24,000 nucleotides of DNA from Mucilaginibacter sp. (GCF_031292485.1 NZ_JARLHA010000038.1); one strand, 5' to 3'. Shown: positions 2,936 to 23,821, counted from the first letter of the stretch. Program-made: numbers and translations. Notes: generated by a model from the sequence alone, not told the origin.

Positions 2936-2979
2936 CTATCTTCGTTCATCCGTAATAAAAAAACCTAAATACTTTAGTT

Positions 2980-3490: not shown

Positions 3491-3540
3491 TGTCCGCACT
3501 TTCCAAACTACGGACGAATATGCCTGGGGACTGCGTCTCC
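3491..3540 (+). repeat. REP-like element copy C (short form)
   Basis: GTCCGCACTTTCCAAACTACGGACGAATATGCCTGGGGACTGCGTCTCC. Confidence 0.6.
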
Positions 3541-4275: not shown

Positions 4276-4330
4276 GATGTCCGTAGTTTCCGAACTACGG
4301 ACGACTATGCCTTGAGACTTCGTCTCAACT
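4276..4330 (+). repeat. REP-like element copy E (short form, best-preserved hairpins)
   Basis: GTCCGTAGTT-TCCG-AACTACGGAC is a perfect 10-bp stem. It is followed by GACTATGCCTT and GAGAC-TTC-GTCTC. Directly abuts copy D. Confidence 0.7.
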
Positions 4331-9901: not shown

Positions 9902-10042
9902 GAAAGAACCAGGAGTCAAGAACCAGGAGTCAAGATGAAAAAGAAAATGGCGAGGATTTAAGGTGCCGATAAATTTTAACAATCTGCACATCTGAAATCT
10001 GCACATTTGCACATCAATCCTGGCTCTTGATTCTTGACTCTT
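9902..10042. repeat. word palindrome a (heptamer words AACCAGG/AGTCAAG; nested ATCTGCAC array)
   Basis: The left arm is AGAACCAGGAGTCA x2 (9905-9932). The right arm is TCCTGGCTCTTGATTCTTGACTCTT (10018-10042). The spacer carries AATCTGCACATCTGAAATCTGCACATTTGCACATC (9981-10015). Confidence 0.75.
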
Positions 10043-10051
10043 ACTAAAATT

Positions 10052-10085
10052 GAATAGCTTTGCTTAATTACAGGCAAGGCTATTC
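10052..10085. promoter_or_regulatory. inverted repeat overlapping the TetR -7 box (candidate autoregulatory operator or 5' UTR hairpin)
   Basis: GAATAGCTTTGC-N10-GCAAGGCTATTC. 12-nt arms with one mismatch. Confidence 0.4.
10055..10062 (+). promoter_or_regulatory. candidate -7 box (TAnnTTTG) for the TetR gene
   Basis: TAGCTTTG, 30 nt upstream of the ATG at 10092. Confidence 0.4.
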
Positions 10086-10091
10086 CGCATT

Positions 10092-10673
10092 ATGGCAAGA
10101 ACAAAAGATTTTGATGAAAATGAAGTGCTGGGTAAAGCCATAGATATTTTTTGGCATAAAGGATATAACGGTACCTCGATGCAGGACCTGGTTGACGGGC
10201 TCGGCATCAGCCGTTCAAGCCTTTATGACACCTATGGCGACAAACATACGCTGTTTATGAAGGCATTGGAAAGCTATCAAAATGAAGGCTCTGGTAAAGT
10301 TGGTGCGATCATAAACAGTGGCGCATCATCAAAAGAGATCATAAAAAACCTGCTTGAATATATAATAGATGGATTGCTGGGCGACCAAAAACATAAAGGT
10401 TGTTTTATGGTAAACGCCGAGGTTGAAGTCGCCCCGCACGATAAGGAAGTTAGTCAAATTGTTTGCGCCAATGACCAGCAGGTGGAAGATGCTTTTTACC
10501 ACGTGATCAAAAAAGGGCAGGATAAAGGCGAAATTACCAACCGGCAGGATGCCAGGGCGCTGGCCCGGTTTACCTTTAACACGGTAAAAGGCATCCGGGT
10601 AACGGCAAAATCAACGACCGATAAAACAGTGTTTGACGATATTGTCAGGCTGGCTTTAGCTATCCTCGAATAA
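10092..10673 (+). CDS. TetR/AcrR family transcriptional regulator
   Basis: 193-aa ORF. N-terminal HTH pattern AIDIFWHKGYNGTSMQDLVDGLGISRSSLYDTYGDKHTLF. Confidence 0.9.
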   Translation: MARTKDFDENEVLGKAIDIFWHKGYNGTSMQDLVDGLGISRSSLYDTYGDKHTLFMKALESYQNEGSGKVGAIINSGASSKEIIKNLLEYIIDGLLGDQKHKGCFMVNAEVEVAPHDKEVSQIVCANDQQVEDAFYHVIKKGQDKGEITNRQDARALARFTFNTVKGIRVTAKSTTDKTVFDDIVRLALAILE

Positions 10674-11088
10674 ATCGTTTGTCGCCGGTTCACAACTTCC
10701 AAATACTAATGCCTCTGCCCCTTAACTATTATGACCCTATATTCTCGTTTTTTATGAAAATCACCTAATCAATGCCCTCAATAGGATACACTTTTACCGG
10801 CTGGATTGATGGGCCTGCTATATAAGGGTTATGGCACAATTTTTATCCTTATATCAGCACAACTTAAAAACCCGTATTATGAAAAACACCGCAACTAAAA
10901 CCACTATTACGCTAAAAGCTATTCAACGTGAACTAAAGGCCATTTTAGAAACTGACATCAGGAAATTTACTTCGCCCCAATATGTAAATATCAGAAATGC
11001 CGCATTCCTGCAATTAATAGCTATTTGATTATTGCCGGCACAACTGTGTTTGCAAGTCCATATCTTTATATCATCTATTAAAAACACT

Positions 11089-11589
11089 ATGGAAAATACA
11101 AAACCTGCACCAATAACCTTTAGCGCCAATGAAGGGGAAAATATTTCAGTAGTTGGCGACACCTACCGTATCCTGGCCTCGGGTAAGCAAACAGGCGGGG
11201 CATTTGCAACTATTGATATGCTGGTACCGCCGGGCGGTGGCCCCGGGCCTCATTCGCACCCGGATTTTCAGGAAACCTTTTATATAATTGAAGGCGAAAT
11301 TGAGGTGAAATCAGAAGTCTCCACCTATATCGCCACAAAAGGTTCTTATGTTGTTATTCCAAAGGGGGGCATCATTCATTGCTTTAAAAATAAATCGGAC
11401 ACCCTCGCTCATCTGCTATGTACCGTGATTCCTTCAGGACTCGAAGAAATGTTCATCGCCATCGGTACGCCGATTGAGCCGGGCACATTTTTACCGCCAC
11501 CGCCAATGGATGCCGAAAGCATCGGACAACTGGTAAAAATTGCAGAAAAATATGGCCAGAAAGTTTATCCGCCCGATTTTTTAGGATAA
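11089..11589 (+). CDS. cupin domain protein
   Basis: The ORF is open from 11032, but MENTKPAPITF at 11089 is the more plausible start. GPGPHSHPDFQETFYIIEGEIEV and IPKGGIHCF-type cupin motifs. Confidence 0.75.
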   Translation: MENTKPAPITFSANEGENISVVGDTYRILASGKQTGGAFATIDMLVPPGGGPGPHSHPDFQETFYIIEGEIEVKSEVSTYIATKGSYVVIPKGGIIHCFKNKSDTLAHLLCTVIPSGLEEMFIAIGTPIEPGTFLPPPPMDAESIGQLVKIAEKYGQKVYPPDFLG

Positions 11590-11663
11590 CAGGCGGCAAG
11601 TCTGCGCGGCTAATAATATATAAAATTTCTATTGGTTAATTGCCTTAATATCAAATAAGTAAT

Positions 11664-11671
11664 TAGATTTG
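11664..11671 (+). promoter_or_regulatory. candidate -7 box (TAnnTTTG) for lipoprotein paralog 1
   Basis: TAGATTTG, 21 nt upstream of the ATG at 11692. Confidence 0.35.
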
Positions 11672-11691
11672 ATTAGCCAATTTTATCTGTT

Positions 11692-12360
11692 ATGAAAAAG
11701 ATATCTCTGCTTGCCGTCCTGGTTATGCCTGCGTTCTTTTTTACAGGCTGCAAAAAAAGTTCAGGTAATTCTCCGGTTGCACCGTCATCAGCTGACTCTT
11801 ACCTGCCGGTTACCGCAGGTTCATCCTGGGATTATTACGCACAGGTTGCAGGCTATACTGATACCATCAGCATAAAAATGACAGGTTCAACAACCAGAAT
11901 AAACGGTGCCGATTTTTTTACGGCCACCGGTGTTTCGCATTTTAATAAAACGATAGTTGAGAATTTTTATGAAGCCAACCACCTTTATGTGGAGCGTTAT
12001 ACCATTGGAGGCGATATTTATGCAACCAATATTGATGTGGTTTTATTAAACGATTCGTTGGCTGTGGGCCATTCTTTTACCGCAGCTGTAACCACCATTG
12101 GCGGCGTTGACGTGCCGCTGATGAGGATAATCAATACCACAGTTGAAAAAAACATTACGAAAGTAGTCGGCGGACAAAGTTTTTCGGGAGTGATCCATAC
12201 CCGGGTAGACTTGCAGTACAATACAGGTAGCGGTTTTGAAACCAACTCAATTTACGACTACTTTATGGCTAAAGGCATCGGCATTATTGAAATGGATTCA
12301 AGCGTGCCCGGCGGCGCTGTTGATGAAACCCAAACAATAATGAATTATACAGTTAAATAA
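11692..12360 (+). CDS. lipoprotein, uncharacterised family (paralog 1 of 3)
   Basis: 222-aa ORF with lipobox FFFTGC. Shares YxPxTxGSxWxY, NHxY, LNDxxxxGH, PxxRxxNT, VIHxxVDLQY and GIGxIE blocks with 13214..13879 and 14008..14694. Confidence 0.7.
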   Translation: MKKISLLAVLVMPAFFFTGCKKSSGNSPVAPSSADSYLPVTAGSSWDYYAQVAGYTDTISIKMTGSTTRINGADFFTATGVSHFNKTIVENFYEANHLYVERYTIGGDIYATNIDVVLLNDSLAVGHSFTAAVTTIGGVDVPLMRIINTTVEKNITKVVGGQSFSGVIHTRVDLQYNTGSGFETNSIYDYFMAKGIGIIEMDSSVPGGAVDETQTIMNYTVK

Positions 12361-12556
12361 ACTTATAAAAGTTATTTTTTGCACAATTTTATGCCTAAAG
12401 CTACAGGAAAATAGATGGAGGTGCAATAAGAACATCGAATCCCATATCGCGTTATTATTAAAAAAATCAAACGGTTTTACCAGGTTGTTTTAAAATGCCA
12501 TTCGCTTTGCTATTTTTACAGCGCGTTTGTAATTACCCGAAACAAACAGAGACCCT

Positions 12557-13018
12557 ATGATAATTATAAAAAATTACCCCGAGTTTGAAAGCTACTTAGG
12601 TAAGGAGTTAGGTGTGTCAGGCTGGCATACCATTACGCAGGAGCAAATAGATAAGTTTGCCGATGCAACCATTGATCACCAGTGGATCCATACCGACGTT
12701 AAAAGAGCCCAAACAGAGAGCCCTTTTAAAGCGACCATTGCGCATGGTTATTTAACGGTTTCGCTGCTGCCTTATTTCTGGCACCAGATAGCAGATGTAC
12801 AAAACCTTAAAATGCAGATCAATTACAGTATTGAAAGTATCCGTTTTGCGCAACCCGTGATAGTGAACAGCCAGGTGCGGCTTAAAGCTAAACTGGTGGC
12901 TATTGTTAATTTAAGGGGTATCACCAAAGCTACCATTGGTGTTGAAATGGAAATTGACGGGCAGAAAAAACCCGCTTATACAGGCGAGGTGGTTTTTCTT
13001 TACCATTTCATCGATTGA
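12557..13018 (+). CDS. MaoC family dehydratase (hot-dog fold, enoyl-CoA hydratase 2-like)
   Basis: 153-aa ORF. ITQEQIDKFADATIDHQWIHTDVKRA...IAHGYLTVSLL is the MaoC dehydratase pattern. Confidence 0.85.
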   Translation: MIIIKNYPEFESYLGKELGVSGWHTITQEQIDKFADATIDHQWIHTDVKRAQTESPFKATIAHGYLTVSLLPYFWHQIADVQNLKMQINYSIESIRFAQPVIVNSQVRLKAKLVAIVNLRGITKATIGVEMEIDGQKKPAYTGEVVFLYHFID

Positions 13019-13026
13019 GTAATAAA

Positions 13027-13152
13027 AGCCAGGAGCCAAGAATCAAGAGTCAAGAGCCAGGAGTCACGAACAGAGAGAACCAGATTTGATTTTTTTTATA
13101 GCCAGTAGCAATTTTTATCCTGATTCTCGGCTTTTGACTCTTGATTCTTTCC
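13027..13152. repeat. word palindrome b (same AGCCAGG/AGTCAAG word family as a)
   Basis: The left arm is AGCCAGG AGCCAAG AATCAAG AGTCAAG AGCCAGG AGTCACG AACAGAG AGAACCA (13027-13083). The right arm is CCTGATT CTCGGCT TTTGACT CTTGATT CTTTCC (13119-13152). Confidence 0.8.
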
Positions 13153-13213
13153 CTCCGCGCAATATTTTCTTCATTTCAATGTTTACATTGTAACCTGTAA
13201 GTAATAAACCTTA

Positions 13214-13879
13214 ATGAAGAAAATCTTTACCCTTATTTTAGCATTTGCAGCCCTATTCATCAGCAGTTGCAAAAAAGATTCAAAACAAAATCCGGTTACC
13301 AATTCAACTGACAACGATTACTTTCCATTAACGTCTAATTCAACCTGGAAATACCTGGTAACCGGGGCAGGCGGAAGTGATACCCTTACGGTTAAACTTG
13401 GCGTTGGTGCCACCGTTATCAACGGGAAAACCTATTATAATACCAATAGCATGTACCAGAAAATGGGCGGAAATGTCGGCTATTTTTTCAGAAAAAACCA
13501 CCTGTATGGCTCCAACTCTTCTAACGCAACAGCCGGGCTAACCATTGAATTCGAGTTTTTGAATGATACCACCGCAGCCGGACATAGCTGGATAAGCTTA
13601 CCCACGGTGAATGGACTGCTGAACAGTGTGCCGGTGCGTACTGTAAATACGATAAAGGAAGTTAACATCAGCAGAACCATCGGCGGGAAAACATTTACCA
13701 ACGTTATTCATGCAGAGGTTGACCTTCAGTACGATTATGGGGGAGGATACGAAAGTTCGGCAGTTTACGAATTTTATTTTGCAAGGGGGATAGGTATGAT
13801 AGAAAATACAACCAATATATCAGGAAATATTTATGAAAAAGAAAGTATTATCAGCTATGATATTGCCCCCGCGCTTTAA
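13214..13879 (+). CDS. lipoprotein, uncharacterised family (paralog 2 of 3)
   Basis: 221-aa ORF with lipobox LFISSC. Conserved blocks shared with the other two paralogs. Confidence 0.7.
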   Translation: MKKIFTLILAFAALFISSCKKDSKQNPVTNSTDNDYFPLTSNSTWKYLVTGAGGSDTLTVKLGVGATVINGKTYYNTNSMYQKMGGNVGYFFRKNHLYGSNSSNATAGLTIEFEFLNDTTAAGHSWISLPTVNGLLNSVPVRTVNTIKEVNISRTIGGKTFTNVIHAEVDLQYDYGGGYESSAVYEFYFARGIGMIENTTNISGNIYEKESIISYDIAPAL

Positions 13880-14007
13880 TAGATAGTAACCTGATAACCG
13901 GGTTTTTACAGGGGAAATTACTTGATTGTTGATATGTTGAATGTTTTACCCCTGAATTATTTTTTTTATTATCAATATTTGAGCGATAAATTATTGATAG
14001 ATCACTG

Positions 14008-14694
14008 ATGCGCAAAAACTTATTTGTCATATTGGCTTTACTGACAATTGGTTTTTCAAGCTGTAATAAAAATCCTTATAAGGCCGCACCTCCTTTAACA
14101 GCGTATAGCTATTTTCCGCAAACCTATGGTTCCACCTGGCGGTACCGCGACTCGATTTTTGGGGAGGCTACCAATCCAATAGCTATTTATGGTATTAAAA
14201 ACGACACACTGACCTATACCCTGAACGGCGCGACTACCGATTTTAACAGCAAAATAAGTTATGACGTGCAGGTGTCTTCCCGTCTTTTTTCGCCGCATAT
14301 TGCCGATTTTTTTGCCGGTAATCATATTTACGAACTGATTGAACCCACCCTGGCCTTCGGAATGATTGATCTGCAAATTTTGAATGATACAGCACATGCA
14401 GGCTACACCTGGAACAGTACGCCTTCATTAACAACATTACTCCACAACAGCCCGGTGCGTACCATCAATACCATCGTTGAAACAGGTATCACGAAGATTG
14501 AGGCGGGAAGAATTTATACCAGCGTGACGCACACAGCGATTAATTTTCAGATCAATATTAATAACCAGGGATTTTACAATATCGCCCATTTTGATTTTTA
14601 TCTTGCCGGCGATGTTGGGATCATTGAAAAAGACGCTTATTATTACGGCTACTTAAATGAAACGGAGACGATTGTTGATTTCCACATCGATTAG
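14008..14694 (+). CDS. lipoprotein, uncharacterised family (paralog 3 of 3, most divergent)
   Basis: 228-aa ORF with lipobox IGFSSC. SYFPQTYGSTWRY, GNHIY, LNDTAHAGYTW, SPVRTINTI and VGIIEKD blocks. Confidence 0.7.
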   Translation: MRKNLFVILALLTIGFSSCNKNPYKAAPPLTAYSYFPQTYGSTWRYRDSIFGEATNPIAIYGIKNDTLTYTLNGATTDFNSKISYDVQVSSRLFSPHIADFFAGNHIYELIEPTLAFGMIDLQILNDTAHAGYTWNSTPSLTTLLHNSPVRTINTIVETGITKIEAGRIYTSVTHTAINFQININNQGFYNIAHFDFYLAGDVGIIEKDAYYYGYLNETETIVDFHID

Positions 14695-14851
14695 TGTCAA
14701 TGCATAGCTTTAGTTATAAGTCAATCGTATGCTTTTCTGAATCAGGACTTAAGACACTCTGCTAAGCATCAATTCGTAATTGTCACGATGCCCTGTCGTC
14801 AAATTATCTCTTATTCCATAAAACTTTACAATCGCTCCACAACCGCTTCCG

Positions 14852-14859
14852 TATTTTTG
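14852..14859 (+). promoter_or_regulatory. candidate -7 box (TAnnTTTG) for the LLM oxidoreductase
   Basis: TATTTTTG, 15 nt upstream of the ATG at 14874. Confidence 0.35.
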
Positions 14860-14873
14860 TGTTGTAAAATAAT

Positions 14874-15881
14874 ATGAACACAAAAAAGATCCACCTCGGC
14901 GTATTAGACCAATCCCCGGTACGTAAAGGGCTAACCGCCGCAGAAGCCGTAAATGAAACCGTTGAGCTGGCAAAATTTACTGATGCCTTGGGTTACACCC
15001 GTTTTTGGGTATCCGAACATCATAATACCGGCGCACTTGCCGGTTCAACCCCCGAAGTCCTGATGGCACACCTGGCAGGGAAAACAAAAAATATCCGCAT
15101 CGGCTCGGGCGGGGTAATGATGCCAAATCACAGCGCGTTAAAAGTAGCTGAAAACTTCAGAATGCTGGAAGCCCTGTTTCCAGGTCGCATTGACCTGGGC
15201 ATGGGCCGCGCTCCGGGTACCGACCGGCACACTGCTGCCTTGCTTAACCCATCCAACCAGTTTCGCGAGCAGGATTTTATTGAGCAATTGTATGATCTGA
15301 ATAACTTTTTTCATGACAGGGGCGACCCGGGTACGCCGATGGCAAAAATAAGGGCCATACCGCAGGTACAAACAGTGCCGGCCATGTGGTTGTTAAGCTC
15401 AAGCGGGCAAAGCGGCATATTTGCCGCGCATTTTGGTACGGGTTTTTCTTTCGCCCATTTTATCAACCCGAACGGCGGGCCGCAGGCCGTAGCTGCTTAT
15501 CGCGAACGTTTTCAACCTTCCGAAGAACTGCATCAACAACAGGCCAATATGGCCATATTTGTTTTTTGTTCGGAAGATGAAGAAAAGATTGAGCGCCACA
15601 AGGCGCTGATGGATTACCGCTTTAACCAGTTTGAAAAGGGCGCCGGCATCGTGCCAATTGGTTACGACGATATTAAGCATGTTACCTATTCGGCAGGAGA
15701 ACAGGAAAGAATATGGTATAACCGCAAAAGAGTAATTGCCGGCACTCCCGGCCAGGTGAAAACACGGCTAACCCAGCTGGCGGACGAATACGATGTGGAT
15801 GAAATTATTGCGGTAACCATTACGGAGCATTTTGAGGACAGGCTGCAATCGTACAAACTGCTGGCCGAAATGTTTTTATAA
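14874..15881 (+). CDS. LLM class flavin-dependent oxidoreductase (luciferase-like, YhbW-type)
   Basis: 335-aa ORF. LGYTRFWVSEHHN...GSGGVMMPNHSALKVAENFRMLEALFPGRIDLGMGRAPGTD. Confidence 0.9.
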   Translation: MNTKKIHLGVLDQSPVRKGLTAAEAVNETVELAKFTDALGYTRFWVSEHHNTGALAGSTPEVLMAHLAGKTKNIRIGSGGVMMPNHSALKVAENFRMLEALFPGRIDLGMGRAPGTDRHTAALLNPSNQFREQDFIEQLYDLNNFFHDRGDPGTPMAKIRAIPQVQTVPAMWLLSSSGQSGIFAAHFGTGFSFAHFINPNGGPQAVAAYRERFQPSEELHQQQANMAIFVFCSEDEEKIERHKALMDYRFNQFEKGAGIVPIGYDDIKHVTYSAGEQERIWYNRKRVIAGTPGQVKTRLTQLADEYDVDEIIAVTITEHFEDRLQSYKLLAEMFL

Positions 15882-15980
15882 GCTGAAGGCAGAAAGTCCA
15901 AAGCGGAAAGCTGCCTTGTGATTTAAACTTTACACATTGAAACGAAGCTTTCAGCTTTATGCTTTCAGCTTTGTGCTTCA
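15880..15980. repeat. word palindrome c (heptamer AAGCTGA-type words)
   Basis: The left arm is AAGCTGA AGGCAGA AAGTCCA AAGCGGA AAGCTGC (15880-15915). The right arm is GAAGCTT TCAGCTT TATGCTT TCAGCTT TGTGCTT CA (15944-15980). Confidence 0.75.
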
Positions 15981-16029
15981 AATCTGGCAGGATAGTTGTT
16001 TGATGTGCTAAACATCAAAACTATTTACT

Positions 16030-16488
16030 ATGGAAACTACAGAAAAATCAATTGAAGTTTTAAATGACTTGATAGAGATCAATAACGACCGTGTTGCGGG
16101 CTTTGCACATGCTGTACATGAATTGAAAGAAAACGATGGCGACCTGAAGGTGCTTTTTCTGCAATTAAGGGAGGAAAGCAGGGAAAATGTTCATGAATTG
16201 AGCACTGCCATCAATAAAAATGGCGGCGAAGCAGAATTGGATATGAGCGGAGATGGCGCGCTGCACCGCATGTGGCTTGATGTAAAAGAAGCCTTTACAG
16301 GCCATGATCGCATGGGAATACTGGCAGAATGTGAACGTGGCGAAGATGCAATAAAAAAAGCCTACGAAAGCGCCCTGTCGCCCGATAATGAATTGCCACC
16401 CCAAATTATCGAAATGCTATTACGCCAGCAGCAGGATATTATTGCATCGCATAACCAGATCAAGGCTTTGAGGGATAGTGAAGCGTAG
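16030..16488 (+). CDS. PA2169 family four-helix-bundle protein (DUF2383, ferritin-like)
   Basis: 152-aa ORF. IEVLNDLIEINNDRVAGF...CERGEDAIKKAYESAL pattern. Confidence 0.8.
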   Translation: METTEKSIEVLNDLIEINNDRVAGFAHAVHELKENDGDLKVLFLQLREESRENVHELSTAINKNGGEAELDMSGDGALHRMWLDVKEAFTGHDRMGILAECERGEDAIKKAYESALSPDNELPPQIIEMLLRQQQDIIASHNQIKALRDSEA

Positions 16489-16504
16489 TTTGAATCGACT
16501 AAGA

Positions 16505-16542
16505 AAAAATGGAGGGTGTTTTAACAGGCATCCTCTTTTTTA
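16505..16542. terminator. candidate bidirectional intrinsic terminator between the PA2169 gene and the PIN pseudogene
   Basis: AAAAAA-TGGAGGGTG-TTTTAACAGG-CATCCTCT-TTTTTTA. An 8-position stem (6 Watson-Crick pairs, one G-U, one terminal mismatch) flanked by an A-run and a T-run. Confidence 0.5.
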
Positions 16543-16554
16543 TACCGGATGAAA

Positions 16555-16966
16555 TCAAAAAAGCTTTAAAAAATCTGCGGGCGGCAAAATGGGAATATTG
16601 TTAAAAGGATGCAGAATCAGTAAATCCTGGTCGCCGCTTACGATACAGGATGCCCCTGCAGTAACTGCAAGTTCAAGGAATTTGTTGTCTTTAGGATCGC
16701 GGCAATCCGAAAACTTTTCTACCGGCTCAATTGAAATGGAATTGGAAATGATATTTTCAATGAAAACTGATGCGCGTAATTAACGAAACATATTTCTCAA
16801 ATTTAGGCCTTGAAAATACGTTAAAGTATTCAGACGCTATTTCTGATGATACTAATAAGGCGCCTTTTTGCCTCGCCCGTTTTAAAGCTAACCCAGGTAT
16901 TGAATGTTCATTCATCAATGCGCTCAGTAATGTATTGGTATCAAATACCCAAAACTCAAGCTTCAT
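16555..16966 (-). pseudogene. PIN domain toxin (PIN_3-like), interrupted by a 1-nt frameshift
   Basis: Frame 1 gives 69 aa (MKLEFWVFDTNTLLSAL...KYVSLITRISFH, stop at 16757-16759). A hand translation of the adjacent frame from 16779 to 16558 gives LRASVFIENIISNSISIEPVEKFSDCRDPKDNKFLELAVTAGASCIVSGDQDLLILHPFNNIPILPPADFLKLF, then TGA at 16555-16557. That is the missing PIN C-terminal half. Confidence 0.65.
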
Positions 16967-17189
16967 CTTTTAATAATTCATCCAATTTTTCCTGAGTTAA
17001 CCCATTAGCTGAAGCCTCTGCTGTAGCTTTTTTCATGATCGTAAAAAGCTGTTCATTGGCAGGTTTGCCGCTGAAAAAATCACTCAGCCAGGCATTAATG
17101 TATATTTCGGCTTTTCTTTTTACTTCTGTATCAGCATTCTCGAAAGCACGTGCAATATAGGGAGGAACAGGAATTGTTATATTTTCCAT
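16956..17189 (-). CDS. putative antitoxin of the PIN module
   Basis: 77-aa ORF immediately upstream of the PIN ORF, overlapping it by 11 nt. No family recognised. Confidence 0.55.
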   Translation of the reverse strand: MENITIPVPPYIARAFENADTEVKRKAEIYINAWLSDFFSGKPANEQLFTIMKKATAEASANGLTQEKLDELLKDEA

Positions 17190-17282
17190 GGTTCTTTATT
17201 TAAGCATTATTCAAATATACCAAACATTTAACAGATCATAAACCGCCCTGTTTTGTTTTTACTTTTCAAAATAATTTAATTG

Positions 17283-17290
17283 TATCTTTG
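17283..17290 (+). promoter_or_regulatory. candidate -7 box (TAnnTTTG) for the desaturase
   Basis: TATCTTTG, 39 nt upstream of the GTG at 17329. Confidence 0.35.
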
Positions 17291-17328
17291 GGCAGATTAT
17301 AAACATTTCTATTTTATACAATACTTCT

Positions 17329-18063
17329 GTGATTATTTTAATTTTCTTTTTGGCCCATTGGTTCCTTTCTTTATTCTTTCAGACATTTTATCTGCACCGC
17401 TACGCTTCTCATAAAATGTTTATCACCAATAAATTTAACGAACGTGTTTTTCACCTGCTGACGTTTATTTGCCAGGGATCATCATTTTTAAACCCGCGCG
17501 CTTATGCTATTATGCACCGCGAGCACCATGCTTACAGCGACACCGAGAAAGACCCGCATTCACCCTATTTTTTCAGGGATGTTTTTCAAATGATGTGGCG
17601 CACAGCGCAAAGCTATAAGCTTTATGAACAACGGTTAAAAGAACCGGAACCGCAATTTAAAGGCAATTATCCTGAATGGCGTTTACTTGACTACTGGGGC
17701 TCAACACATTTGTCGCGACTGGCTTTCGGCGCGTTTTACGTGGTTTTTTATATTGTTTTTGCTACCCATTGGTGGATGTTCTTGCTGCTGCCGATTCACT
17801 TTTTAATGGGCCCTATTCATGGCGCTATTGTTAATTGGTGCGGTCATAAATACGGTTATTCAAATTTTGATAATGGCGATAAATCAAAAAACACTACACC
17901 TTTTGATTTTTTGATGCTTGGCGAGTTGTTTCAGAACAATCACCACAAACGCCCCAATAGCCCTAACTTTGCTGCAAAATGGTTCGAGTTTGATCCGGTT
18001 TACCCGGTAATGAAAGTGATGCACTGGATCCATTTGATCAGGCTGCGGGAAGCGTATTTATAG
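17329..18063 (+). CDS. acyl-CoA (fatty acid) desaturase
   Basis: 244-aa membrane ORF with a GTG start. Histidine boxes HRYASH, HREHHAYSD and NNHHKRP. Confidence 0.85.
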   Translation: MIILIFFLAHWFLSLFFQTFYLHRYASHKMFITNKFNERVFHLLTFICQGSSFLNPRAYAIMHREHHAYSDTEKDPHSPYFFRDVFQMMWRTAQSYKLYEQRLKEPEPQFKGNYPEWRLLDYWGSTHLSRLAFGAFYVVFYIVFATHWWMFLLLPIHFLMGPIHGAIVNWCGHKYGYSNFDNGDKSKNTTPFDFLMLGELFQNNHHKRPNSPNFAAKWFEFDPVYPVMKVMHWIHLIRLREAYL

Positions 18064-18067
18064 TTGT

Positions 18068-18200
18068 GGTAAAAGGTTAAAGGCGAAAGGTTTGCCGGAC
18101 TGTAAAATATTGAGGCTTGGTTTTAAGACCGGGCCTTTTTTATGAATACTAAGTTGAAATATAACGTCATAAAGCTTTCGCCTTTTACCTTTTACCTTTC
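18068..18200. repeat. word palindrome d (heptamers GGTAAAA/GGCGAAA)
   Basis: The left arm is GGTAAAA GGTTAAA GGCGAAA GGTTT (18068-18093). The right arm is AAAGC TTTCGCC TTTTACC TTTTACC TTTC (18171-18200). The spacer contains a canonical terminator. Confidence 0.8.
18113..18142 (+). terminator. intrinsic terminator downstream of the desaturase
   Basis: AGGCTTGGT-TTTAAG-ACCGGGCCT followed by TTTTTAT. The stem includes two G-U pairs. Confidence 0.55.
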
Positions 18201-18823
18201 ATCTCTCCTTTATAATCCGTAATATTCAGCATCGCGTCGCAAAAGCTGTATTCGTGCTCCTGGTTGGAGCAGATGATGGTCAGCCTGTTTTTTGCGAACT
18301 GCTGTACCAGGCTAAGGTACCAGTCAATCCCCTGCGTATCTAAATTGGAAGTAGGCTCATCAAGCATCAGCATAGGCGTATCTGCACAAAAGGCCAGGGC
18401 CAGCTTTAGCCGCTGTTTCATCCCCGATGAAAAGTATTTGATCAATTTGTTTTTACTGCCCGGCAATGATAACAGTTCGATCAATCCATCTTTGCCTATC
18501 CCTTCTTTAAACGTCTTGAATTTAAAGTGAAAATCGATCATTTCATCAAGGCTAAATTCCTCGATCAGCTCCAGATATGGAGCTGCGATGCTTAAGTGCA
18601 GGTAAACCTTCTCAATATCGATGGGCTCTGTCTGAAAAAAGTAATCAATTTTACCGGCAGATGGCGCCAGGCTCCCGTTCAATACCTGTAATAAGGTAGA
18701 TTTACCTGAACCGTTGGAACCAAGTATCGCATAAATGCTACCGGAATTAAAGGAATAATCCACCCCTCTGAAGATCCAGTCGCGGTTAAAACGCCGGCCA
18801 ATGTTTTGAAGGGTGATGTTCAT
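18185..18823 (-). CDS. ABC transporter ATP-binding protein
   Basis: Walker A GSNGSGKST, signature FSSGMKQRL, Walker B LMLDEP. The ORF is open to 18886, but that extension lies inside a repeat. MNITLQNIG at 18823 is taken as the start. Confidence 0.85.
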   Translation of the reverse strand: MNITLQNIGRRFNRDWIFRGVDYSFNSGSIYAILGSNGSGKSTLLQVLNGSLAPSAGKIDYFFQTEPIDIEKVYLHLSIAAPYLELIEEFSLDEMIDFHFKFKTFKEGIGKDGLIELLSLPGSKNKLIKYFSSGMKQRLKLALAFCADTPMLMLDEPTSNLDTQGIDWYLSLVQQFAKNRLTIICSNQEHEYSFCDAMLNITDYKGEMKGKR

Positions 18824-18825
18824 GT

Positions 18826-18890
18826 CAGTTTGCAGTTTTTTGTTTGCAGTTGGCAGCCTTTGCAAACTGCAAATTGCCCACTGCAAACTC
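18826..18890. repeat. word palindrome e (octamer GTTTGCAG)
   Basis: CAGTTTGCAGTTTTTTGTTTGCAGTTGGCAG / CCTTTGCAAACTGCAAATTGCCCACTGCAAACTC, with almost no spacer, between the lpxA stop and the ABC start. Confidence 0.7.
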
Positions 18891-18894
18891 TTTT

Positions 18895-19680
18895 TTATGA
18901 GTTCCCAAACCCCTTCATAATGCCCCGCTGCGAGTTTTGTACAAAGTTGATAATCTCGTCGCGTTCAACGGTTGGGTTGAATTCGGCTTCAATAATGTCG
19001 AGCGCTTTGGTGATATTATATTTTTTGAGAAAGATGATGCGGTAAATTTCCTGTATCTCATTTATAGTAGTAGCAGAAAATCCCCGGCGGCGCAGGCCAA
19101 CAGAATTGATACCGACATAAGACAGAGGTTCGCGGCCGGCTTTGGTATAAGGTGGTACGTCTTTCCGCACCAAAGATCCGCCGGAGATCATGCTGTGCGC
19201 GCCGATCTCTACGAACTGGTGAACAGCTGAGGTGCCGCCGATAAAAGCATAATCATATACATTGATATGCCCGGCAAGCTGAACTGAATTGGCAATGATC
19301 ACGTTATCGCCGATAACGCAGTCATGGGCCACGTGTACATAAGCCATCAGCAGGCAATTGGCGCCGATAGTAGTGGTGTTTTTATCCAATGCTGTGCCCC
19401 GGTTTAAAGTTACGCATTCGCGGATCACGGTATTGTCACCAACAGAAACAGTGCTTTGTTCTCCGCGATATTTCAGGTCCTGCGGAGGTGCCGAAATCAC
19501 TGCTCCCGGATAGATCCGGCAATTTTTTCCGATACGGGCGCCATCCATGATGGTACTGTTTGAACCAATCCATGAACCTTCACCAATCTCAACATCTTTG
19601 TGTATGGTTACAAAGGGTTCAATTACCACATTGTCGGCTATTTTAGCCTGGGGATGAATGTATGCTAAGGGTTGGATCAT
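18895..19680 (-). CDS. lpxA: acyl-ACP--UDP-N-acetylglucosamine O-acyltransferase
   Basis: 261-aa ORF with hexapeptide repeats and the LpxA C-terminal helical domain. Its start overlaps the lpxC/fabZ stop by 4 nt. Confidence 0.95.
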   Translation of the reverse strand: MIQPLAYIHPQAKIADNVVIEPFVTIHKDVEIGEGSWIGSNSTIMDGARIGKNCRIYPGAVISAPPQDLKYRGEQSTVSVGDNTVIRECVTLNRGTALDKNTTTIGANCLLMAYVHVAHDCVIGDNVIIANSVQLAGHINVYDYAFIGGTSAVHQFVEIGAHSMISGGSLVRKDVPPYTKAGREPLSYVGINSVGLRRRGFSATTINEIQEIYRIIFLKKYNITKALDIIEAEFNPTVERDEIINFVQNSQRGIMKGFGNS

Positions 19681-21086
19681 TCTTCGTCAGTTTTTTGCTT
19701 TTTTACAATTTGTGCCATCAGTTCAGCCTCCACAACAATGCGTTCGCCAACCATGCCAATACCCTTCATTTGTGCAATTCCCCTGCGGATAGGGGCGATC
19801 AGGTTACAATGAAAGATAAGCGTATCCCCTGGCGTTACCGGTGCTTTAAACCTGGCATTTTCTATTTTAAGGAACAAGGTAATATAATTTTCGGGATCGG
19901 GTACCGTATTTAATACCAGGATGCCACCCGTTTGTGCCATTGCCTCAATCTGAAGCACCCCCGGGAACAACGGCATGCCCGGGAAATGGCCCCTGAACAT
20001 TTCTTCATTCATGGTAACATTTTTTAACCCGACTACATGGCTCTTAGTCAGCTCGAGTATCTTATCGATCATCAAAAACGGCTGCCGGTGGGGCAGGATG
20101 TTCATGATCTGGATGGTATCATACACAGGCTTTGCATTCGGGTCGTAAATTTTTACATGCTTTCGGCTTCTTTCCTTTTTGATCAGGGTTTTAATTTTTT
20201 TAGCGAAGGCCACATTGGCCGCGTGGCCGGGCCTTGCTGCCATAATATGGCCGCGTAACGGAACGCCTACCAGTGCCAGGTCGCCGATCATATCCAGTAG
20301 CTTATGTCTGGCCGGCTCATTCTGGTGACGGAGCTCGATGTTATTTAAAATGCCCTGGGGCGCTACCTTAATGTCTTTGCGGTTAAATATCCGGGCCAGG
20401 TGGGCCAGTTCTTCTTCGTCAACCTCTTTGTCAACCACCACAATGGCGTTGTTCAGGTCGCCGCCTTTTATCAGGTCGTGCTTTAAAAGCATTTCCAGTT
20501 CGTGCAAAAAGCAAAAAGTGCGGCAGGAAGCGATTTCCTTATTAAATTCGGATATGGTTGAGATACTTGCATGCTGGCTTCCCAATACCTGCGAATTATA
20601 ATCAACCATACAGGTAAAACGGTAATCGTCCAATGGCATGGCCACCATTTCAACTTTGCGGTCGGGTTCCGAATAATGAATATTATAGGGGATATGGTAA
20701 TATTCCCGGTCGGCTTCCTGTTCTACAAAGCCGGTTTCTTTTATAGCATCAACAAACTGGATGGAGCTGCCATCCATTATCGGCGTTTCGGGGCCGTCAA
20801 GGTCAATCAGCACGTTATCAATCTCCAAACCGACAAGGGCGGCCAGTACGTGTTCAATAGTACTAACGCTGGCTCCGTTTTGCGAAATAGTGGTGCCGCG
20901 CGAGGTATCAGTAACATTATCACAATCGGCGTCAATTATGGGCGAGCCGGTAATATCTATCCTTCTGAATTTATAACCGTGATTTTCCGGTGCAGGGTTA
21001 AAAGTCATGGTAACCCGTTCGCCGGTATGTAAACCAGTGCCCGAAACCGAAACCGGCGCCTTAATTGTTTTTTGTTTTACGTTCAT
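19677..21086 (-). CDS. lpxC/fabZ: bifunctional UDP-3-O-acyl-GlcNAc deacetylase / 3-hydroxyacyl-ACP dehydratase
   Basis: 469-aa ORF. The N-terminal LpxC pattern is KTIKAPVSVSGTGLHTGERV...HRQ. The C-terminal FabZ pattern is LPHRQPFLMIDKI...FRGHFPGMPLFPGVLQIEAMAQ. This fusion is typical of Bacteroidota. Confidence 0.95.
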   Translation of the reverse strand: MNVKQKTIKAPVSVSGTGLHTGERVTMTFNPAPENHGYKFRRIDITGSPIIDADCDNVTDTSRGTTISQNGASVSTIEHVLAALVGLEIDNVLIDLDGPETPIMDGSSIQFVDAIKETGFVEQEADREYYHIPYNIHYSEPDRKVEMVAMPLDDYRFTCMVDYNSQVLGSQHASISTISEFNKEIASCRTFCFLHELEMLLKHDLIKGGDLNNAIVVVDKEVDEEELAHLARIFNRKDIKVAPQGILNNIELRHQNEPARHKLLDMIGDLALVGVPLRGHIMAARPGHAANVAFAKKIKTLIKKERSRKHVKIYDPNAKPVYDTIQIMNILPHRQPFLMIDKILELTKSHVVGLKNVTMNEEMFRGHFPGMPLFPGVLQIEAMAQTGGILVLNTVPDPENYITLFLKIENARFKAPVTPGDTLIFHCNLIAPIRRGIAQMKGIGMVGERIVVEAELMAQIVKKQKTDEE

Positions 21087-21096
21087 TTTATAAGAC

Positions 21097-21195
21097 TGTT
21101 CATTGGTTCATTGGTTCAGTTGTTCATTGGTAAATAGTTCATTAATAGCCGCAAGATAGGACCAATGAACTAATGAACAAGTGAACTAGTGAACA
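21097..21195. repeat. word palindrome f (octamer GTTCATTG)
   Basis: The left arm is TGTTCATTGGTTCATTGGTTCAGTTGTTCATTGG (21097-21130). The right arm is CCAATGAACTAATGAACAAGTGAACTAGTGAACA (21162-21195). 27 of 34 arm positions are complementary by hand alignment, and 4 of the 7 others are G-T. Confidence 0.8.
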
Positions 21196-22229
21196 TCCTT
21201 TTTCAATTCTTTAATTATTTTTTCAAGTTCATCAATTCTTCTTTCAAGGGCGGGCAGGCGTTGTGTAACGATCTGTGAGCGCATGTGATCGGTATAAGGT
21301 GTTGCCGGCGAGCCCATCCACTTTTTGTTTTCTTCGGTTATGGTGCGGCTTATACCCGATTGCGCCTGGATCTGCGTTCCTTTGGCAAGGGTAATATGGC
21401 CCACAACGCCAACCTGGCCGCCAATAATACAGCTTTCACCTATTTTGGTACTGCCTGATATCCCCGTTTGTGCGGCCACAACGGTATTTGAGCCGATCTC
21501 AACGTTATGTGCTATCTGGATCAGATTATCCAGCTTTACACCCTTGCGGATAATGGTTGAACCCATAGTAGCTCTATCGACAGTAGTGTTTGAGCCGATC
21601 TCCACATCGTCTTCGATGATCACATTCCCAATCTGGCTTATTTTAGCATAAGTGCCATCCCCGGCAGGCGCAAAACCAAAACCGTCCGCACCGATGATGG
21701 TGCCCGAATGGATGATGACATTGTTGCCCAAAATACAATCAAAATATATTTTCACTCCCGGAAACAACGTTACGTTGTCACCTAATATTACATCGTCTGC
21801 AATATAGCACCCGGGATAAATTTTGCAATTATTGCCAATTTTTACATTTGGACCTACGTAGGCAAACGCGCCTACATAAGCGTTTTCGCCCACCATTGCA
21901 GTAGGGTGAATAAATGAAGGCTGTTCAACGCCAGTTTTATTGAGTTTCAGCGTGTTGTATTTTTCAAGTAATACTGTTATAGCGCTATAGGCGTTAGGGA
22001 CTCTTATCAGCGTAGATTTTACCGGTTCAGCCAAAACCTGGTCGTTATTGATGATAACGACGGATGCTTCCGTGGTATATAAATACTGCTCGTATTTAGG
22101 GTTAGCTAAAAACGATAACGACCCTGCACGGGCCTCTTCTATTTTGGCAAGTTGATTTACCGGCACCAGGGGGTCACCCTCAACAGTTCCGTTTAGCATC
22201 AAACCTAATTCATGTGCGGTAAATTGCAT
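21186..22229 (-). CDS. lpxD: UDP-3-O-(3-hydroxyacyl)glucosamine N-acyltransferase
   Basis: 347-aa ORF with the N-terminal LpxD domain, a long hexapeptide-repeat beta-helix and a C-terminal coiled segment. Confidence 0.95.
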   Translation of the reverse strand: MQFTAHELGLMLNGTVEGDPLVPVNQLAKIEEARAGSLSFLANPKYEQYLYTTEASVVIINNDQVLAEPVKSTLIRVPNAYSAITVLLEKYNTLKLNKTGVEQPSFIHPTAMVGENAYVGAFAYVGPNVKIGNNCKIYPGCYIADDVILGDNVTLFPGVKIYFDCILGNNVIIHSGTIIGADGFGFAPAGDGTYAKISQIGNVIIEDDVEIGSNTTVDRATMGSTIIRKGVKLDNLIQIAHNVEIGSNTVVAAQTGISGSTKIGESCIIGGQVGVVGHITLAKGTQIQAQSGISRTITEENKKWMGSPATPYTDHMRSQIVTQRLPALERRIDELEKIIKELKKDVH

Positions 22230-22253
22230 CGGGCAAAGTTAATTATTTATTAA

Positions 22254-22382
22254 GAAGTCCGAAAGTCCGAAAAGTCCGAAAGTCCGGAAGAATTATTTTG
22301 CTATTTTTTTTAATCGGTTTATTATTTGGCAGCCATCGGCCTTTTTGTCTTTCGGACTTTCGGTCTTCCCGACTTTCGGACT
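22254..22382. repeat. word palindrome g (octamer GTCCGAAA)
   Basis: The left arm is GAA GTCCGAAA GTCCGAAAA GTCCGAAA GTCCGGAA G (22254-22290). The right arm is GTC TTTCGGAC TTTCGGTC TTCCCGAC TTTCGGAC T (22347-22382). Confidence 0.85.
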
Positions 22383-23607
22383 AAACTAACTCCTTTCTAT
22401 AACAAAGTATGTACTTTTTAACCGTTTTTGCTAGTGCTTCCAAATTTGAGTTATCACTGGCTGCGGTTATGTCTTTTATTGTACCATCTTTCATTAAAAT
22501 ACGGATGTTGCCGTCGCCCGACCGGTAAGCATTGTTCCGGATTGTATCATCAAATACAAAATACGATGCCTCATGTGCCGAAATATCATATTTGGCCATC
22601 GCTTTAGCGGTCAGCTTTTCTATAATTTGTTTATCAGGCGGCTGGTTGGTGATATCAACCTTATAAAGGTCGCGATACACCATATCCTGGCAAAGTTTCG
22701 AGAGTACCCAATCATCGTGCGTTGCCCAAACTTTTACAGCGGCCATAATATCGGTATCATCCAGGGTGGCAAAGGCTTCGAGGTGATGGCCCTCATTCAT
22801 AAAAGCCCCGCTGCTGATAGGCTTTCTTAAAAAATGACTTAGCGCCGGCGTTGTAAAAACATTTTCGCCCATTAAAGTAAGTTCGCGGCTGCGTTTCATT
22901 ATCCGCACTAAAAGCTGCTCGGCCGCAATCACGGTTTTATGCAGGTATACCTGCCAGTACATTAACCTGCGGGCAATTAAAAATTTTTCAACTGAATAGA
23001 TCCCTTTTTCCTCCACTACGATGTGATCGTCTTTCACATTCAGCATTTTAATAATCCGGTCGGAGCTGATAACTCCTTCAGAAACGCCGGTAAAAAAGCT
23101 GTCGCGGTTCAGGTAATCCATCCGGTCCATATCCAACTGGCTCGACACCAGCTGGTGCAAAAACTCGCGGGGATAAAGGCCTTTAAATATTTCAATAGCC
23201 ATTGTTAAACGGCCGTCAAACTGCATATTGAGCTTACTCATCAGCATGGCCGAAATATCCTCATGTGAGATGCCCTCGACAATGGTTTCTTCGAGCGCGT
23301 GCGAAAACGGCCCGTGCCCGATATCGTGCAATAGTATGGCGATGATAACCGCTCCTTCTTCCTCGTGCGAAATTTCGTGACCTTTATTGCGCAGCGTTTC
23401 AATAGCCATTCCCATCAGGTACATTGCGCCAAGGGCATGATGAAACCGGGTGTGCAAAGCACCGGGATATACCAGATGCGTCATCCCCAGCTGTTTGATG
23501 TAGCGCAGCCTTTGAAAATACGGGTGTTCAATCAGGTCAAATACCAGCTCGGTAGGGATGCTGATAAAGCCGTAAACGGGGTCGTTTATTATTTTCTTTT
23601 TATTCAA
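22381..23607 (-). CDS. HD domain phosphohydrolase (SAMHD1/dNTPase-like)
   Basis: 408-aa ORF. NDPVYGFISIP, RFHHALGAMYL, LLHDIGHGPFSH and DMDRMDYLNRD motifs. Confidence 0.85.
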   Translation of the reverse strand: MNKKKIINDPVYGFISIPTELVFDLIEHPYFQRLRYIKQLGMTHLVYPGALHTRFHHALGAMYLMGMAIETLRNKGHEISHEEEGAVIIAILLHDIGHGPFSHALEETIVEGISHEDISAMLMSKLNMQFDGRLTMAIEIFKGLYPREFLHQLVSSQLDMDRMDYLNRDSFFTGVSEGVISSDRIIKMLNVKDDHIVVEEKGIYSVEKFLIARRLMYWQVYLHKTVIAAEQLLVRIMKRSRELTLMGENVFTTPALSHFLRKPISSGAFMNEGHHLEAFATLDDTDIMAAVKVWATHDDWVLSKLCQDMVYRDLYKVDITNQPPDKQIIEKLTAKAMAKYDISAHEASYFVFDDTIRNNAYRSGDGNIRILMKDGTIKDITAASDNSNLEALAKTVKKYILCYRKELV

Positions 23608-23721
23608 AATTTTTAATAGCGTGCAAAAATGTAAATAAAGGTAATAACCCTGTACTATATTTGTTAATTTTTGTTAATGATTAGTAATAGCCGTAACAAA
23701 AGCCGTGCTTTGTGGTTAATA

Positions 23722-23821
23722 GTCTGAACCCGAATTTGTAGAATTTATTGAATTAACAGAATTTTAAACGCAATAGCATAATTCCAAAAATTCTGTTAAT
23801 TCAATAAATTCGAGTTCAGAC
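23722..23821. repeat. word palindrome h (GAATTT-rich arms, 25-bp perfect core)
   Basis: GAATTTATTGAATTAACAGAATTTT (23741-23765) pairs perfectly with AAAATTCTGTTAATTCAATAAATTC (23787-23811). The outer pair is GTCTGAAC (23722-23729) / GTTCAGAC (23814-23821). Confidence 0.8.

Follow-up and report, generated by a model that had tools for sequence, protein, structure and literature searches.

What kind of element fills the gaps between genes with short repeated words that face their own reverse complements? We asked this of a 24,000-nt stretch of DNA from a Mucilaginibacter sp. (Sphingobacteriaceae, Bacteroidota; 42.5% G+C), hereafter called the window. A preliminary description, made from the sequence alone, had marked eight intergenic "word palindromes" in its second part, which we call loci a to h. 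Each consists of a left arm of tandem 7- or 8-nt words, a spacer, and a right arm holding the reverse-complement words. Judged from their sequences, these elements are best described as intervening sequence (IVS)-like hairpin elements associated with PF05635 genes, here mostly without an open reading frame (ORF) and placed in the gaps of mRNAs. We somewhat favor a reading in which the eight loci belong, as members without an ORF, to a class of hairpin elements that includes PF05635 gene cassettes, and in which they are probably cotranscribed and tolerated as double-stranded RNA (dsRNA) stems.

All eight palindromes proved to be present. No locus lacked an array of 7-, 8-, or 9-nt units (or 14- and 16-nt double words) as called by Tandem Repeats Finder (TRF); e, f, and g had one in each arm, and the others in one arm or more. 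Among inverted repeats with arms no more than 200 nt apart in the whole window, the nine longest, I1 to I9, are these loci, with g at I13 to I15. Several loci were detected in more than one register because the arms consist of tandem words. Every locus folds as a single long hairpin on either strand, with stems of 22 to 45 bp and energies of −29 to −54 kcal/mol. The fold z-scores range from −2.3 to −11.6, and at most 3 of 200 dinucleotide shuffles fold equally well; locus c is the weakest (z −2.8/−2.3) and locus h the strongest (z −10.7/−11.6). With a strict detector, which demands three tandem copies and, no more than 150 nt away, two words of the reverse complement, three loci of the window were recovered, as against none in 100 shuffles. 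The spacers measure 4 to 85 nt and contain no ORF. The arms of d, f, and g do reach into coding sequence or stop codons, but otherwise no coding sequence explains the palindromes. They are not CRISPR-like either: the units are 7 to 9 nt, contiguous, and have an inverted partner, and there are no 24- to 48-nt repeats with unique spacers. The "most gaps" said to be occupied in this stretch come down to 8 of the 14 in the region from 9.9 to 24 kb; the first 9.9 kb has no palindrome of this kind in any gap. Rfam gave no family at gathering score for the loci; its sole match was a plant microRNA model on locus f, at 28.6 bits against a threshold of 117 (E 0.05).

The word-array hairpin construction is genus-wide in Mucilaginibacter. 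Our census took in 1.44 Mb of DNA surrounding the lpx cluster, from 81 Mucilaginibacter sequences. Non-low-complexity arrays of period 6 to 9 numbered 665, and for 224 of them two or more tandem reverse-complement words lie no farther than 200 nt away; control partners for the same arrays numbered 29 (direct), 15 (reversed), and 28 (complemented). Pairs of TRF arrays gave a similar picture, with 74 inverted and 3 direct. Of the 224 partnered arrays, 185 fall outside ORFs, even though coding sequence makes up about 89% of the DNA; unpartnered arrays, by contrast, are mostly inside ORFs. Merging yielded 152 loci with a median length of 92 nt, a figure that includes many orthologues across species and does not count independent events. 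Hairpins of this build without an ORF occur about once per 9.5 kb in the sampled regions. They keep a distinct position relative to genes: 124 of the 152 are in tandem (co-oriented) gaps, 13 in convergent, and 5 in divergent ones, against a baseline of 572, 107, and 149 for gaps of at least 50 nt. The distance from the element edge to the adjacent stop codon has a median of 1 nt (10 to 90% range, −10 to +14).

One such hairpin carries a gene. In sequence L059, the gap between lpxA and the ABC ATPase gene holds a GTCATT word palindrome whose "spacer" is a 94-residue ORF that matches PF05635 (E 2.7e-22), the 23S rRNA-intervening sequence protein family, and TIGR02436, the four helix bundle protein family. 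A profile of relatives weakly matches the solved structures 2gsc and 2rld, and the PF05635 family is similar to Avd, a protein of diversity-generating retroelements (PMC10053308). When 85 Mucilaginibacter loci were searched for further PF05635 genes with a degenerate DNA motif, L059 alone was returned, the other matches being chance occurrences inside unrelated ORFs. PF05635 genes are widespread in public sequence data, and a metagenome scan returned 80 relatives with 62 to 93% identity. In 41 of the 42 metagenomic relatives checked, inverted tandem arms of GT(T)CATT words flank the gene, in multiple registers.

Besides L059, 47 further PF05635 cassettes enclose such an ORF. Cassette arms are 20 to 61 nt long with 72 to 100% complementarity. 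Cassettes with GT(T)CATT words sit in different contexts, between thyA and folA, after a PBP1A-like ORF, after an amidinotransferase-like ORF, or between lpxA and the ABC gene; the names thyA, folA, PBP1A, and amidinotransferase are readings of the ORF translations and were not obtained by a family search. All cassettes examined run in the same direction as the gene upstream, and their left arm starts at, or provides, the stop codon of that gene. Full cassettes span from that stop codon to the next start codon, and in at least two cases the right-arm word CAATGAC provides the ATG of the downstream gene. CAATGAC words (L087 954-990; L059 3744-3760; L093 990-1000) coincide with the annotated start and first residues (MTNDQ..) of the ABC ATPase and with the ATG of the DHFR-like (folA) gene; here repeat words serve as protein N-termini. 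L164 has, at 448-561 and upstream of its PF05635 cassette, a second word palindrome without an ORF (AGTCAATGGTCACTGGTCAATGG / ..CCAGTGACCAATGACCATTGACT), giving nested or tandem hairpins of the same word family.

Locus f connects the window to these cassettes. Its word (GTTCATTG, variant GTCATTAG) is the arm word of PF05635 cassettes and is identical to that of L146, L147, L152, L161, L116, and L136. Among the metagenomic relatives, the closer ones (70 to 93% identity) use GTCATTA/G or 8-nt forms, and the distant ones (62 to 66%) use GTTCATT(G/A), which is the locus f word. For the other seven loci, the proposed link to the cassettes is one of shared architecture, position, and interchangeability at orthologous gaps, not of homology.

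The same layout is found far from Mucilaginibacter. In Bacteroides, all three loci with 2rld-type proteins have it, the intervening-sequence protein (IVP) gene lying between araD and araA or between an aminotransferase and DAHP synthase; the arms are built from AATTGAC/GTCAATT, 31 to 37 nt long and 89 to 97% complementary. Both Xanthomonadales loci (Xanthomonas and Dyella), which encode 2gsc-type proteins, place the gene between accB and accC. There the left arm (GGGAATC GGGAGTG GAGAATC GGGAATC) begins after the accB stop, and the right arm (CCCATTC CCCATTC CCGACTC CCTATTC) ends at the accC ATG. Together, the layouts in Sphingobacteriia, Bacteroides, and Xanthomonadales make the palindrome of 7- to 8-nt word arrays a cross-phylum hallmark of PF05635 cassettes. 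Furthermore, the arm word follows the lineage of the PF05635 protein (GTCATTA/G, GTTCATT, AATTGAC, GGGAATC).

The lpxA-to-ABC gap provides a series from cassette to bare hairpin. The ORF is full length in L087, C-terminally truncated in L059, and missing from L062 and L054. All four share the left arm TAGTCATTGGTCACTGGTCATTAGT, including an odd GTCACTG word, and the same right-arm end. These common arms indicate that, at least for this family, the ORF-less hairpins are the same element as the cassette. An 892-nt gap at the same place in L038 was considered as a further cassette and rejected, as it contains a duplicated lpxA; in this Mucilaginibacter metagenome-assembled genome, two 261-residue copies of lpxA stand in tandem, 30 nt apart (11419-13019).

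Orthologous gaps show how the words change. A hairpin is present in the lpxD-to-lpxC gap of about three-quarters of the species, always with a related word, which is the 8-mer GTTCATT(G/A) in some lineages and the 7-mer GTCATT(G/A) in others. The one-base difference is found in every copy of both arms, and the last lpxD codons match it (VH* versus SH*). A change shared by all copies of both arms points to homogenization or wholesale replacement, not to independent point changes. Consensus folding of 19 of these gaps predicted just six pairs; the tandem arms are not alignable in one register. At the HD-to-lpxD gap, the word itself has turned over, with at least seven unrelated words across species (GGTTGATT.., AGAGATTAG, GTCCGAAA, TTGAAGAT, GTATCAAG.., GAGTAGTGAGT, and ACGTATAACGTT). 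The lpxA-to-ABC gap holds, depending on the species, GTTCATAG/GTCCATGG, GTTTGCAG, GTCATTAG (with or without the ORF), or a GAATTT-type element, and in further species quite different REP-like hairpins. Other hairpin repeat types (CCCTCTCCAAAGGAGAGGG, gtcattgcgaggaacgaagcaatc.., and gtcatactgagc..cctcagggtgacagc) were seen at L081 1-30 and in the lpxA-to-ABC gap of L050, L051, L041, and L056. From these sequences, gene 3′ gaps in Mucilaginibacter seem to be general landing places for hairpin elements. Arm copy number also differs, both between the two arms of an element and between species.

The hairpins could instead have a purely local origin. A short 3′ stem might grow by slippage and hairpin-templated copying, longer stems being favored as terminators, attenuators, or mRNA stabilizers, with PF05635 genes as unrelated occasional passengers in the loops. 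The differences in word between orthologous gaps of related species and in copy number between arms and between species fit this account. So do arrays whose opening words are often the final codons of the gene upstream, as though the array had been seeded there, and the great excess of ORF-less over ORF-bearing forms in Mucilaginibacter. We nevertheless consider it rather unlikely. The same word families are found at unrelated gaps with unrelated spacers, and the arm word tracks the PF05635 lineage, as expected if arms and ORF travel as a unit.

Indeed, the words are not private to their loci. Those of a/b, e, f, g, and h recur at nonorthologous gaps of other Mucilaginibacter species, where the spacers are unrelated; in L020, for example, the a/b word follows a different gene. 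Locus h belongs to a dispersed family with fixed ends, CTGAAyCnGAATTT, present at no fewer than three other genomic sites in other species. This recurrence argues for several dispersed families. A conserved architecture with variable sequence, as put forward in the preliminary description, is therefore borne out, while its notion of a different word at almost every locus needs this correction. Its suggestion of a structure- or process-generated class, rather than a mobile family, is not supported in that form, on the same ground and also because the family of locus f, GT(T)CATTRG, forms the termini of a PF05635 gene cassette in different genomic contexts.

Dispersed families bring to mind nonautonomous mobile elements resembling repetitive extragenic palindromes (REPs), their REPIN hairpins, or MITEs (miniature inverted-repeat transposable elements), of which several families per genome would be moved by a REP-associated tyrosine transposase (RAYT) or insertion sequence (IS) encoded elsewhere. 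REPs, too, are extragenic at 3′ ends and scarce in divergent gaps, and when close to stop codons they also affect translation. The elements studied here share with the REPs, BIMEs, and REPINs of Proteobacteria the imperfect extragenic palindromes at gene 3′ ends and in operons, the several families per genome, and possibly a role in mRNA stability, as proposed for the former. The other REP-like hairpins in the same gaps of other species, and the fixed termini of the h type at several sites, also speak for this kinship. REPs, however, are single palindromes of 20 to 40 nt; they share a conserved head (GTAG/CGTC) and are paired with a cognate RAYT (PMC3733652). The arms here are tandem word arrays and, read from their sequences, have no common GTAG/CGTC head. 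The arm ends of words other than that of h vary, as does arm length, unlike the ends of cut-and-paste elements, and copies with the same word have unrelated spacers. By eye we recognized no target-site duplication, and no IS or transposase was found nearby, in the window and the loci examined; the called or Pfam-annotated genes of the window and L081 include no RAYT (IS200/IS605-like). This origin is, in our estimate, quite unlikely. Integron attC sites were rejected as well: the flanking genes are syntenic core genes, and there are no R/L core sites.

The preliminary description had also proposed long-stem terminators or attenuators, that is, factor-independent ones without a U-tract. The elements do resemble intrinsic (Rho-independent) terminators in forming very stable hairpins directly 3′ of stop codons, including convergent gene ends (locus d), and for loci a to c, the gene ahead of each may be the last of its transcription unit. 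T-runs are lacking after every arm, however, and a terminator scan flagged none of the 16 arms, picking instead the canonical stems with T-runs at 16511-16536 and 18112-18137. Compared with intrinsic terminators, the stems are three to five times longer and AT-rich, and the loops, 5 to 85 nt in length, can accommodate an ORF or a true terminator. The conserved lpxD-lpxC/fabZ-lpxA cluster has loci e and f in its interior, and full cassettes enclose an ORF with their arms and reach up to the next start codon. Termination thus has weak support as the function of the class, and we judge it improbable. A still more remote proposal, which takes up the periodic protein-binding arrays of the preliminary description, is that each word is a unit bound by an oligomeric protein on single- or double-stranded nucleic acid, for example, a pentameric Avd-like PF05635 protein acting in cis or trans, given that Avd-family proteins bind nucleic acid, the period is strictly 7 to 8 nt across phyla despite unrelated words, and the word covaries with the PF05635 lineage; but there are many words per genome against few PF05635 genes in the sampled DNA, and simple binding has no need of an inverted partner.

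Comparison with other tandem heptamers and foldback structures places the elements further. Arrays of the heptamer TAACTGA are known from Beggiatoaceae, Cyanobacteria, and a few Bacteroidetes, and are described as direct arrays, mostly upstream of start codons, with one inverted case among 170 sets (PMC4679880). Like these and the cyanobacterial short tandemly repeated repetitive (STRR) sequences, our elements are intergenic tandem heptamers with lineage-specific words and variable copy number; they differ in the reverse-complement partner, which is defining here, in their 3′-end position, and in words and taxon. In the foldback (FB) transposons of Drosophila, too, long inverted terminal repeats are made of short tandem repeats, the arms vary in length, and a coding segment may lie at the center. 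FB transposons are eukaryotic and kilobase-sized and have no sequence or protein relationship to the present elements, so the analogy is architectural only. In the literature that we searched, there is no account of word-array hairpins in Bacteroidota or of PF05635 genes with heptamer-array flanks outside rRNA, an absence that is not proof of novelty.

The closest named relatives of a class for which the preliminary description had no name are the 23S rRNA IVSs. IVSs with an S23p (PF05635) ORF occur in Leptospira, Salmonella, and other bacteria. In Coxiella, the 23S IVS has a stem of terminal inverted repeats that is cut by RNase III and a decaying S23p ORF; it also contains tandem GACAGAT heptamers, whose number varies between strains, with the RNase III site at the first repeat (PMC4990558). 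The likeness is considerable: a long stem from terminal inverted repeats, an optional PF05635 ORF with ORF-less or decaying versions, heptamers of variable copy number in the stem region (in Coxiella), and an element that is, or here would be, embedded in a host transcript. There are also differences. IVSs sit in helices of 23S rRNA, and their excision by RNase III has been demonstrated, whereas the present elements are known from sequence, and the eight loci, like every PF05635 cassette examined, have protein-coding genes on either side. Most elements here, including every locus of the window, have no ORF, and their arms are overtly multicopy word arrays. As they are not in rRNA, we class them as working like an IVS, not as IVSs.

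If the eight loci are IVS-like hairpins related to PF05635 cassettes, the following mechanism can be proposed. The element would be transcribed within the mRNA of the upstream gene. Its imperfect stem of 22 to 45 bp would then behave as the stem of a ribosomal IVS, being a dsRNA substrate of RNase III, a barrier to 3′ exonucleases, or both. Such processing or protection would make insertion between cistrons harmless and could set the relative stability of the neighboring cistrons. At the DNA level, arm copy number may drift through replication slippage, while complementarity of the arms would be kept by selection on pairing or by hairpin-templated repair, and words may be homogenized or replaced over time. 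Because neither 7 nor 8 is divisible by three, any stop or start codon within a word should recur in all three frames along its array. TAG, TGA, or TAA occurs in many left-arm words, but the Xanthomonas words have none, nor do GTTTGCAG and GTCCGAAA, and the point about stop codons is therefore not general.

Several findings weigh against this interpretation. Only one window word of the eight, that of locus f, is tied directly to PF05635 cassettes. The 85 Mucilaginibacter loci contain one ORF cassette against about 152 ORF-less hairpins (many of them orthologous, so that the counts are not independent), and the ORF could then be a passenger in preexisting hairpins and not their source. Locus h sits in a divergent (promoter) gap, and neither a target-site duplication nor a mobility enzyme was identified in the loci examined. 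Folding does not help either. For the 124 elements in tandem gaps, the sense and antisense RNAs fold at −34.5 and −35.9 kcal/mol, respectively, antisense being the more stable in 77 of 124. The arm-to-arm transitions noted earlier are real, but they do not favor the mRNA strand, and this absence of preference gives no support to a purely RNA-level constraint. In PF05635 cassettes, the antisense edge seemingly arises because left-arm words more often carry an A (TAG/TAA/TGA) opposite a right-arm C; a by-eye count in the top cassette pairs, suggestive only, gave 25 stop-containing words in left arms and 11 in the mirrored right arms.

Table 1. Arms of the eight word palindromes and a terminator-like hairpin in the window
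Feature	Position	Strand	Words and detection
Locus a, left arm	9902..9935	+	(GA)ACCAGG AGTCAAG x2; TRF 14-nt unit x2.3, 100%; inverted repeat I4
Locus a, right arm	10017..10042	+	CCTGGCT CTTGATT CTTGACT CTT
Locus b, left arm	13027..13069	+	AGCCAGG AGCCAAG AATCAAG AGTCAAG AGCCAGG AGTCACG; TRF; I3, 84% over 32 nt
Locus b, right arm	13118..13152	+	TCCTGATT CTCGGCT TTTGACT CTTGATT CTT
Locus c, left arm	15880..15914	+	AAGCTGA AGGCAGA AAGTCCA AAGCGGA AAGCTGC; I9; −32.2 kcal/mol
Locus c, right arm	15946..15980	+	AGCTTTC AGCTTTA TGCTTTC AGCTTTG TGCTTC; TRF 7-nt x3.9
Locus d, left arm	18068..18093	+	GGTAAAA GGTTAAA GGCGAAA GGTTT; I7, 92% over 26 nt
Terminator-like hairpin and T-run in loop of locus d	18112..18143 (hairpin 18112-18137)	+	terminator scan
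Locus d, right arm	18171..18200	+	AAAGCTTTCGCC TTTTACC TTTTACC TTT; TRF 7-nt x2.7, 100%
Locus e, arm near ABC gene start (18823)	18826..18856	-	CAGTTTG words; TRF; I8
Locus e, arm about 5 nt past lpxA stop	18861..18890	-	TGCAAAC words; TRF; inverted repeat
Locus f, arm near lpxC/fabZ start	21097..21131	-	GTTCATTG x4 on +; CAATGAAC on sense; TRF 8-nt x4.2
Locus f, arm starting inside lpxD	21160..21195	-	sense GTT CAC TAG TTCACTTG TTCATTAG TTCATTGG
Locus g, arm near lpxD	22254..22291	-	GAAGTCCGAAAGTCCGAAAAGTCCGAAAGTCCGGAAGA; TRF 8-nt x4.4, 89%; I13-I15, I22, I23
Locus g, arm over HD-domain gene stop	22342..22382	-	sense T TAG TCCGAAAGTCGGGAAGACCGAAAGTCCGAAAG
Locus h, left arm	23722..23765		GTCTGAACCC GAATTTGTA GAATTTATT GAATTAACA GAATTTT, 9-nt period; I2; I6 (25 nt, 100%)
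Locus h, right arm	23780..23821		terminates in GAGTTCAGAC, 19 nt ahead of response-regulator ATG

The loci differ in how they meet their neighboring genes (Table 1). Locus a begins 6 nt past the stop of the SDR gene (9146-9895; Pfam adh_short) and folds at −49.1 kcal/mol (z −5.9); its loop contains an 8-mer array, ATCTGCAC x4.4 at 9982-10015, without an inverted partner. Locus b begins 8 nt past the stop of the MaoC-like gene (−47.7 kcal/mol, z −6.6), and, as read from the sequence, its word variants run in mirrored order between the arms. No other locus is as loose as c, which opens within the luciferase-like gene's stop codon. Locus d occupies a convergent gap, 4 nt past the desaturase stop (−52.7 kcal/mol, z −7.7); its right arm encodes the last four residues and stop (KGKR*) of the ABC ATPase on the minus strand. 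The hairpin in its loop was the top match of the terminator scan, with 11 pairs plus TTTTTT. At locus e, the arms are only 4 to 5 nt apart (−29.3 kcal/mol, z −4.2, sense strand). The first word of locus f is the final two codons and stop of lpxD, the lpxC start beside the locus reads aaATGAAC, and the inverted repeats I1, I5, and I12 represent it in several registers. At locus g (−49.7 kcal/mol, z −7.3), the TAG of the HD gene overlaps the first word, and the arm on the lpxD side is followed by a conserved TAnnTTTG-type box just ahead of the lpxD ATG. Locus h, in the divergent gap between the HD and response-regulator genes, is the exception to placement at 3′ ends.

Other repeats and motifs lie close to the palindromes. 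Next to hairpin g, a conserved block of about 35 nt (..ttgctgctttaatattaacatttaaatttgcccg; 22230-22253, minus strand) abuts the lpxD ATG, ends in TAAnTTTG, and is kept in all of the more than 70 species. TAAnTTTG is reminiscent of the −7 box of Bacteroidetes promoters and stands a mere 4 nt or so from the lpxD start, which hints at a leaderless lpxD transcript that would begin just after hairpin g. Adjoining hairpin f, a 21-nt tandem repeat (x2.4) occupies 21199-21248 in the C-terminal coding region of lpxD. A tandem array without an inverted partner, TTGATATG x3.2, is located at 13922-13945 in the 13880-14007 gap. In the first part of the window, a different dispersed repeat of about 50 nt is present in three copies (3491-3540, 4153-4205, and 4279-4330), in gaps 3′ of genes. 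It consists of two short hairpins (GTCCGTAGTTTCCGAACTACGGAC, then GACGAnnATGCCTTGAGACTTCGTC) and has a REP-like look, unrelated to the word palindromes.

From 9.1 kb, the genes on the plus strand are SDR, a TetR regulator, a cupin, two lipoprotein-like ORFs flanking the MaoC-like gene, a third lipoprotein-like paralogue, the luciferase-like oxidoreductase, DUF2383, and the fatty-acid desaturase. The minus strand then encodes the ABC ATPase, lpxA, lpxC/fabZ, lpxD, and the HD-domain protein, followed on the plus strand by the response regulator, which brings the window to its end at 24 kb. Beyond that end, in contig L081 of the same strain (2661-3220), a ParE-like toxin and an antitoxin lie between the response-regulator/PglZ gene and tsaE. 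The LpxC/FabZ fusion protein of the window is 87 to 95% identical to counterparts in 80 Mucilaginibacter species, and a search with it aimed at other genera returned relatives at the level of Mucilaginibacter only. L081 to L085, metagenomic contigs of the same strain that come from a single study, match the window with 100% identity and therefore tell nothing of variation within the species. The GC skew of the window is too weak for assigning a replication strand.

What would these elements mean for the family? The origin, mobility, and purpose of ribosomal IVSs and their S23p/PF05635 ORF have posed questions ever since their first description, and the same family supplies the essential Avd subunit of diversity-generating retroelements. 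Here, one stereotyped cassette, made of a stop codon, a heptamer array, an ORF, an inverted heptamer array, and a start codon, lies between co-oriented genes in Sphingobacteriia, Bacteroides, and Xanthomonadales. ORF-less hairpins of this build form a major part of Mucilaginibacter intergenic DNA, and this repeat class is now linked to a poorly understood element of several bacterial phyla. In practice, this should help with operon annotation, with explaining assembly breaks, and with marking where a repeat word encodes the start or end of a gene. A bolder idea, which we regard as speculative and hold with little confidence, is that PF05635 genes with inverted heptamer arrays are a widespread, unrecognized selfish cassette inside operons of at least two phyla. 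Neutralized at the RNA level, it would encode a protein that recognizes its own words and promotes their spread, perhaps aided by a reverse transcriptase supplied in trans, on the model of diversity-generating retroelements, while ORF-less derivatives would have multiplied to fill a large share of the gene 3′ gaps in Mucilaginibacter. If so, ribosomal IVSs would be only the first-noticed insertion sites of the element.

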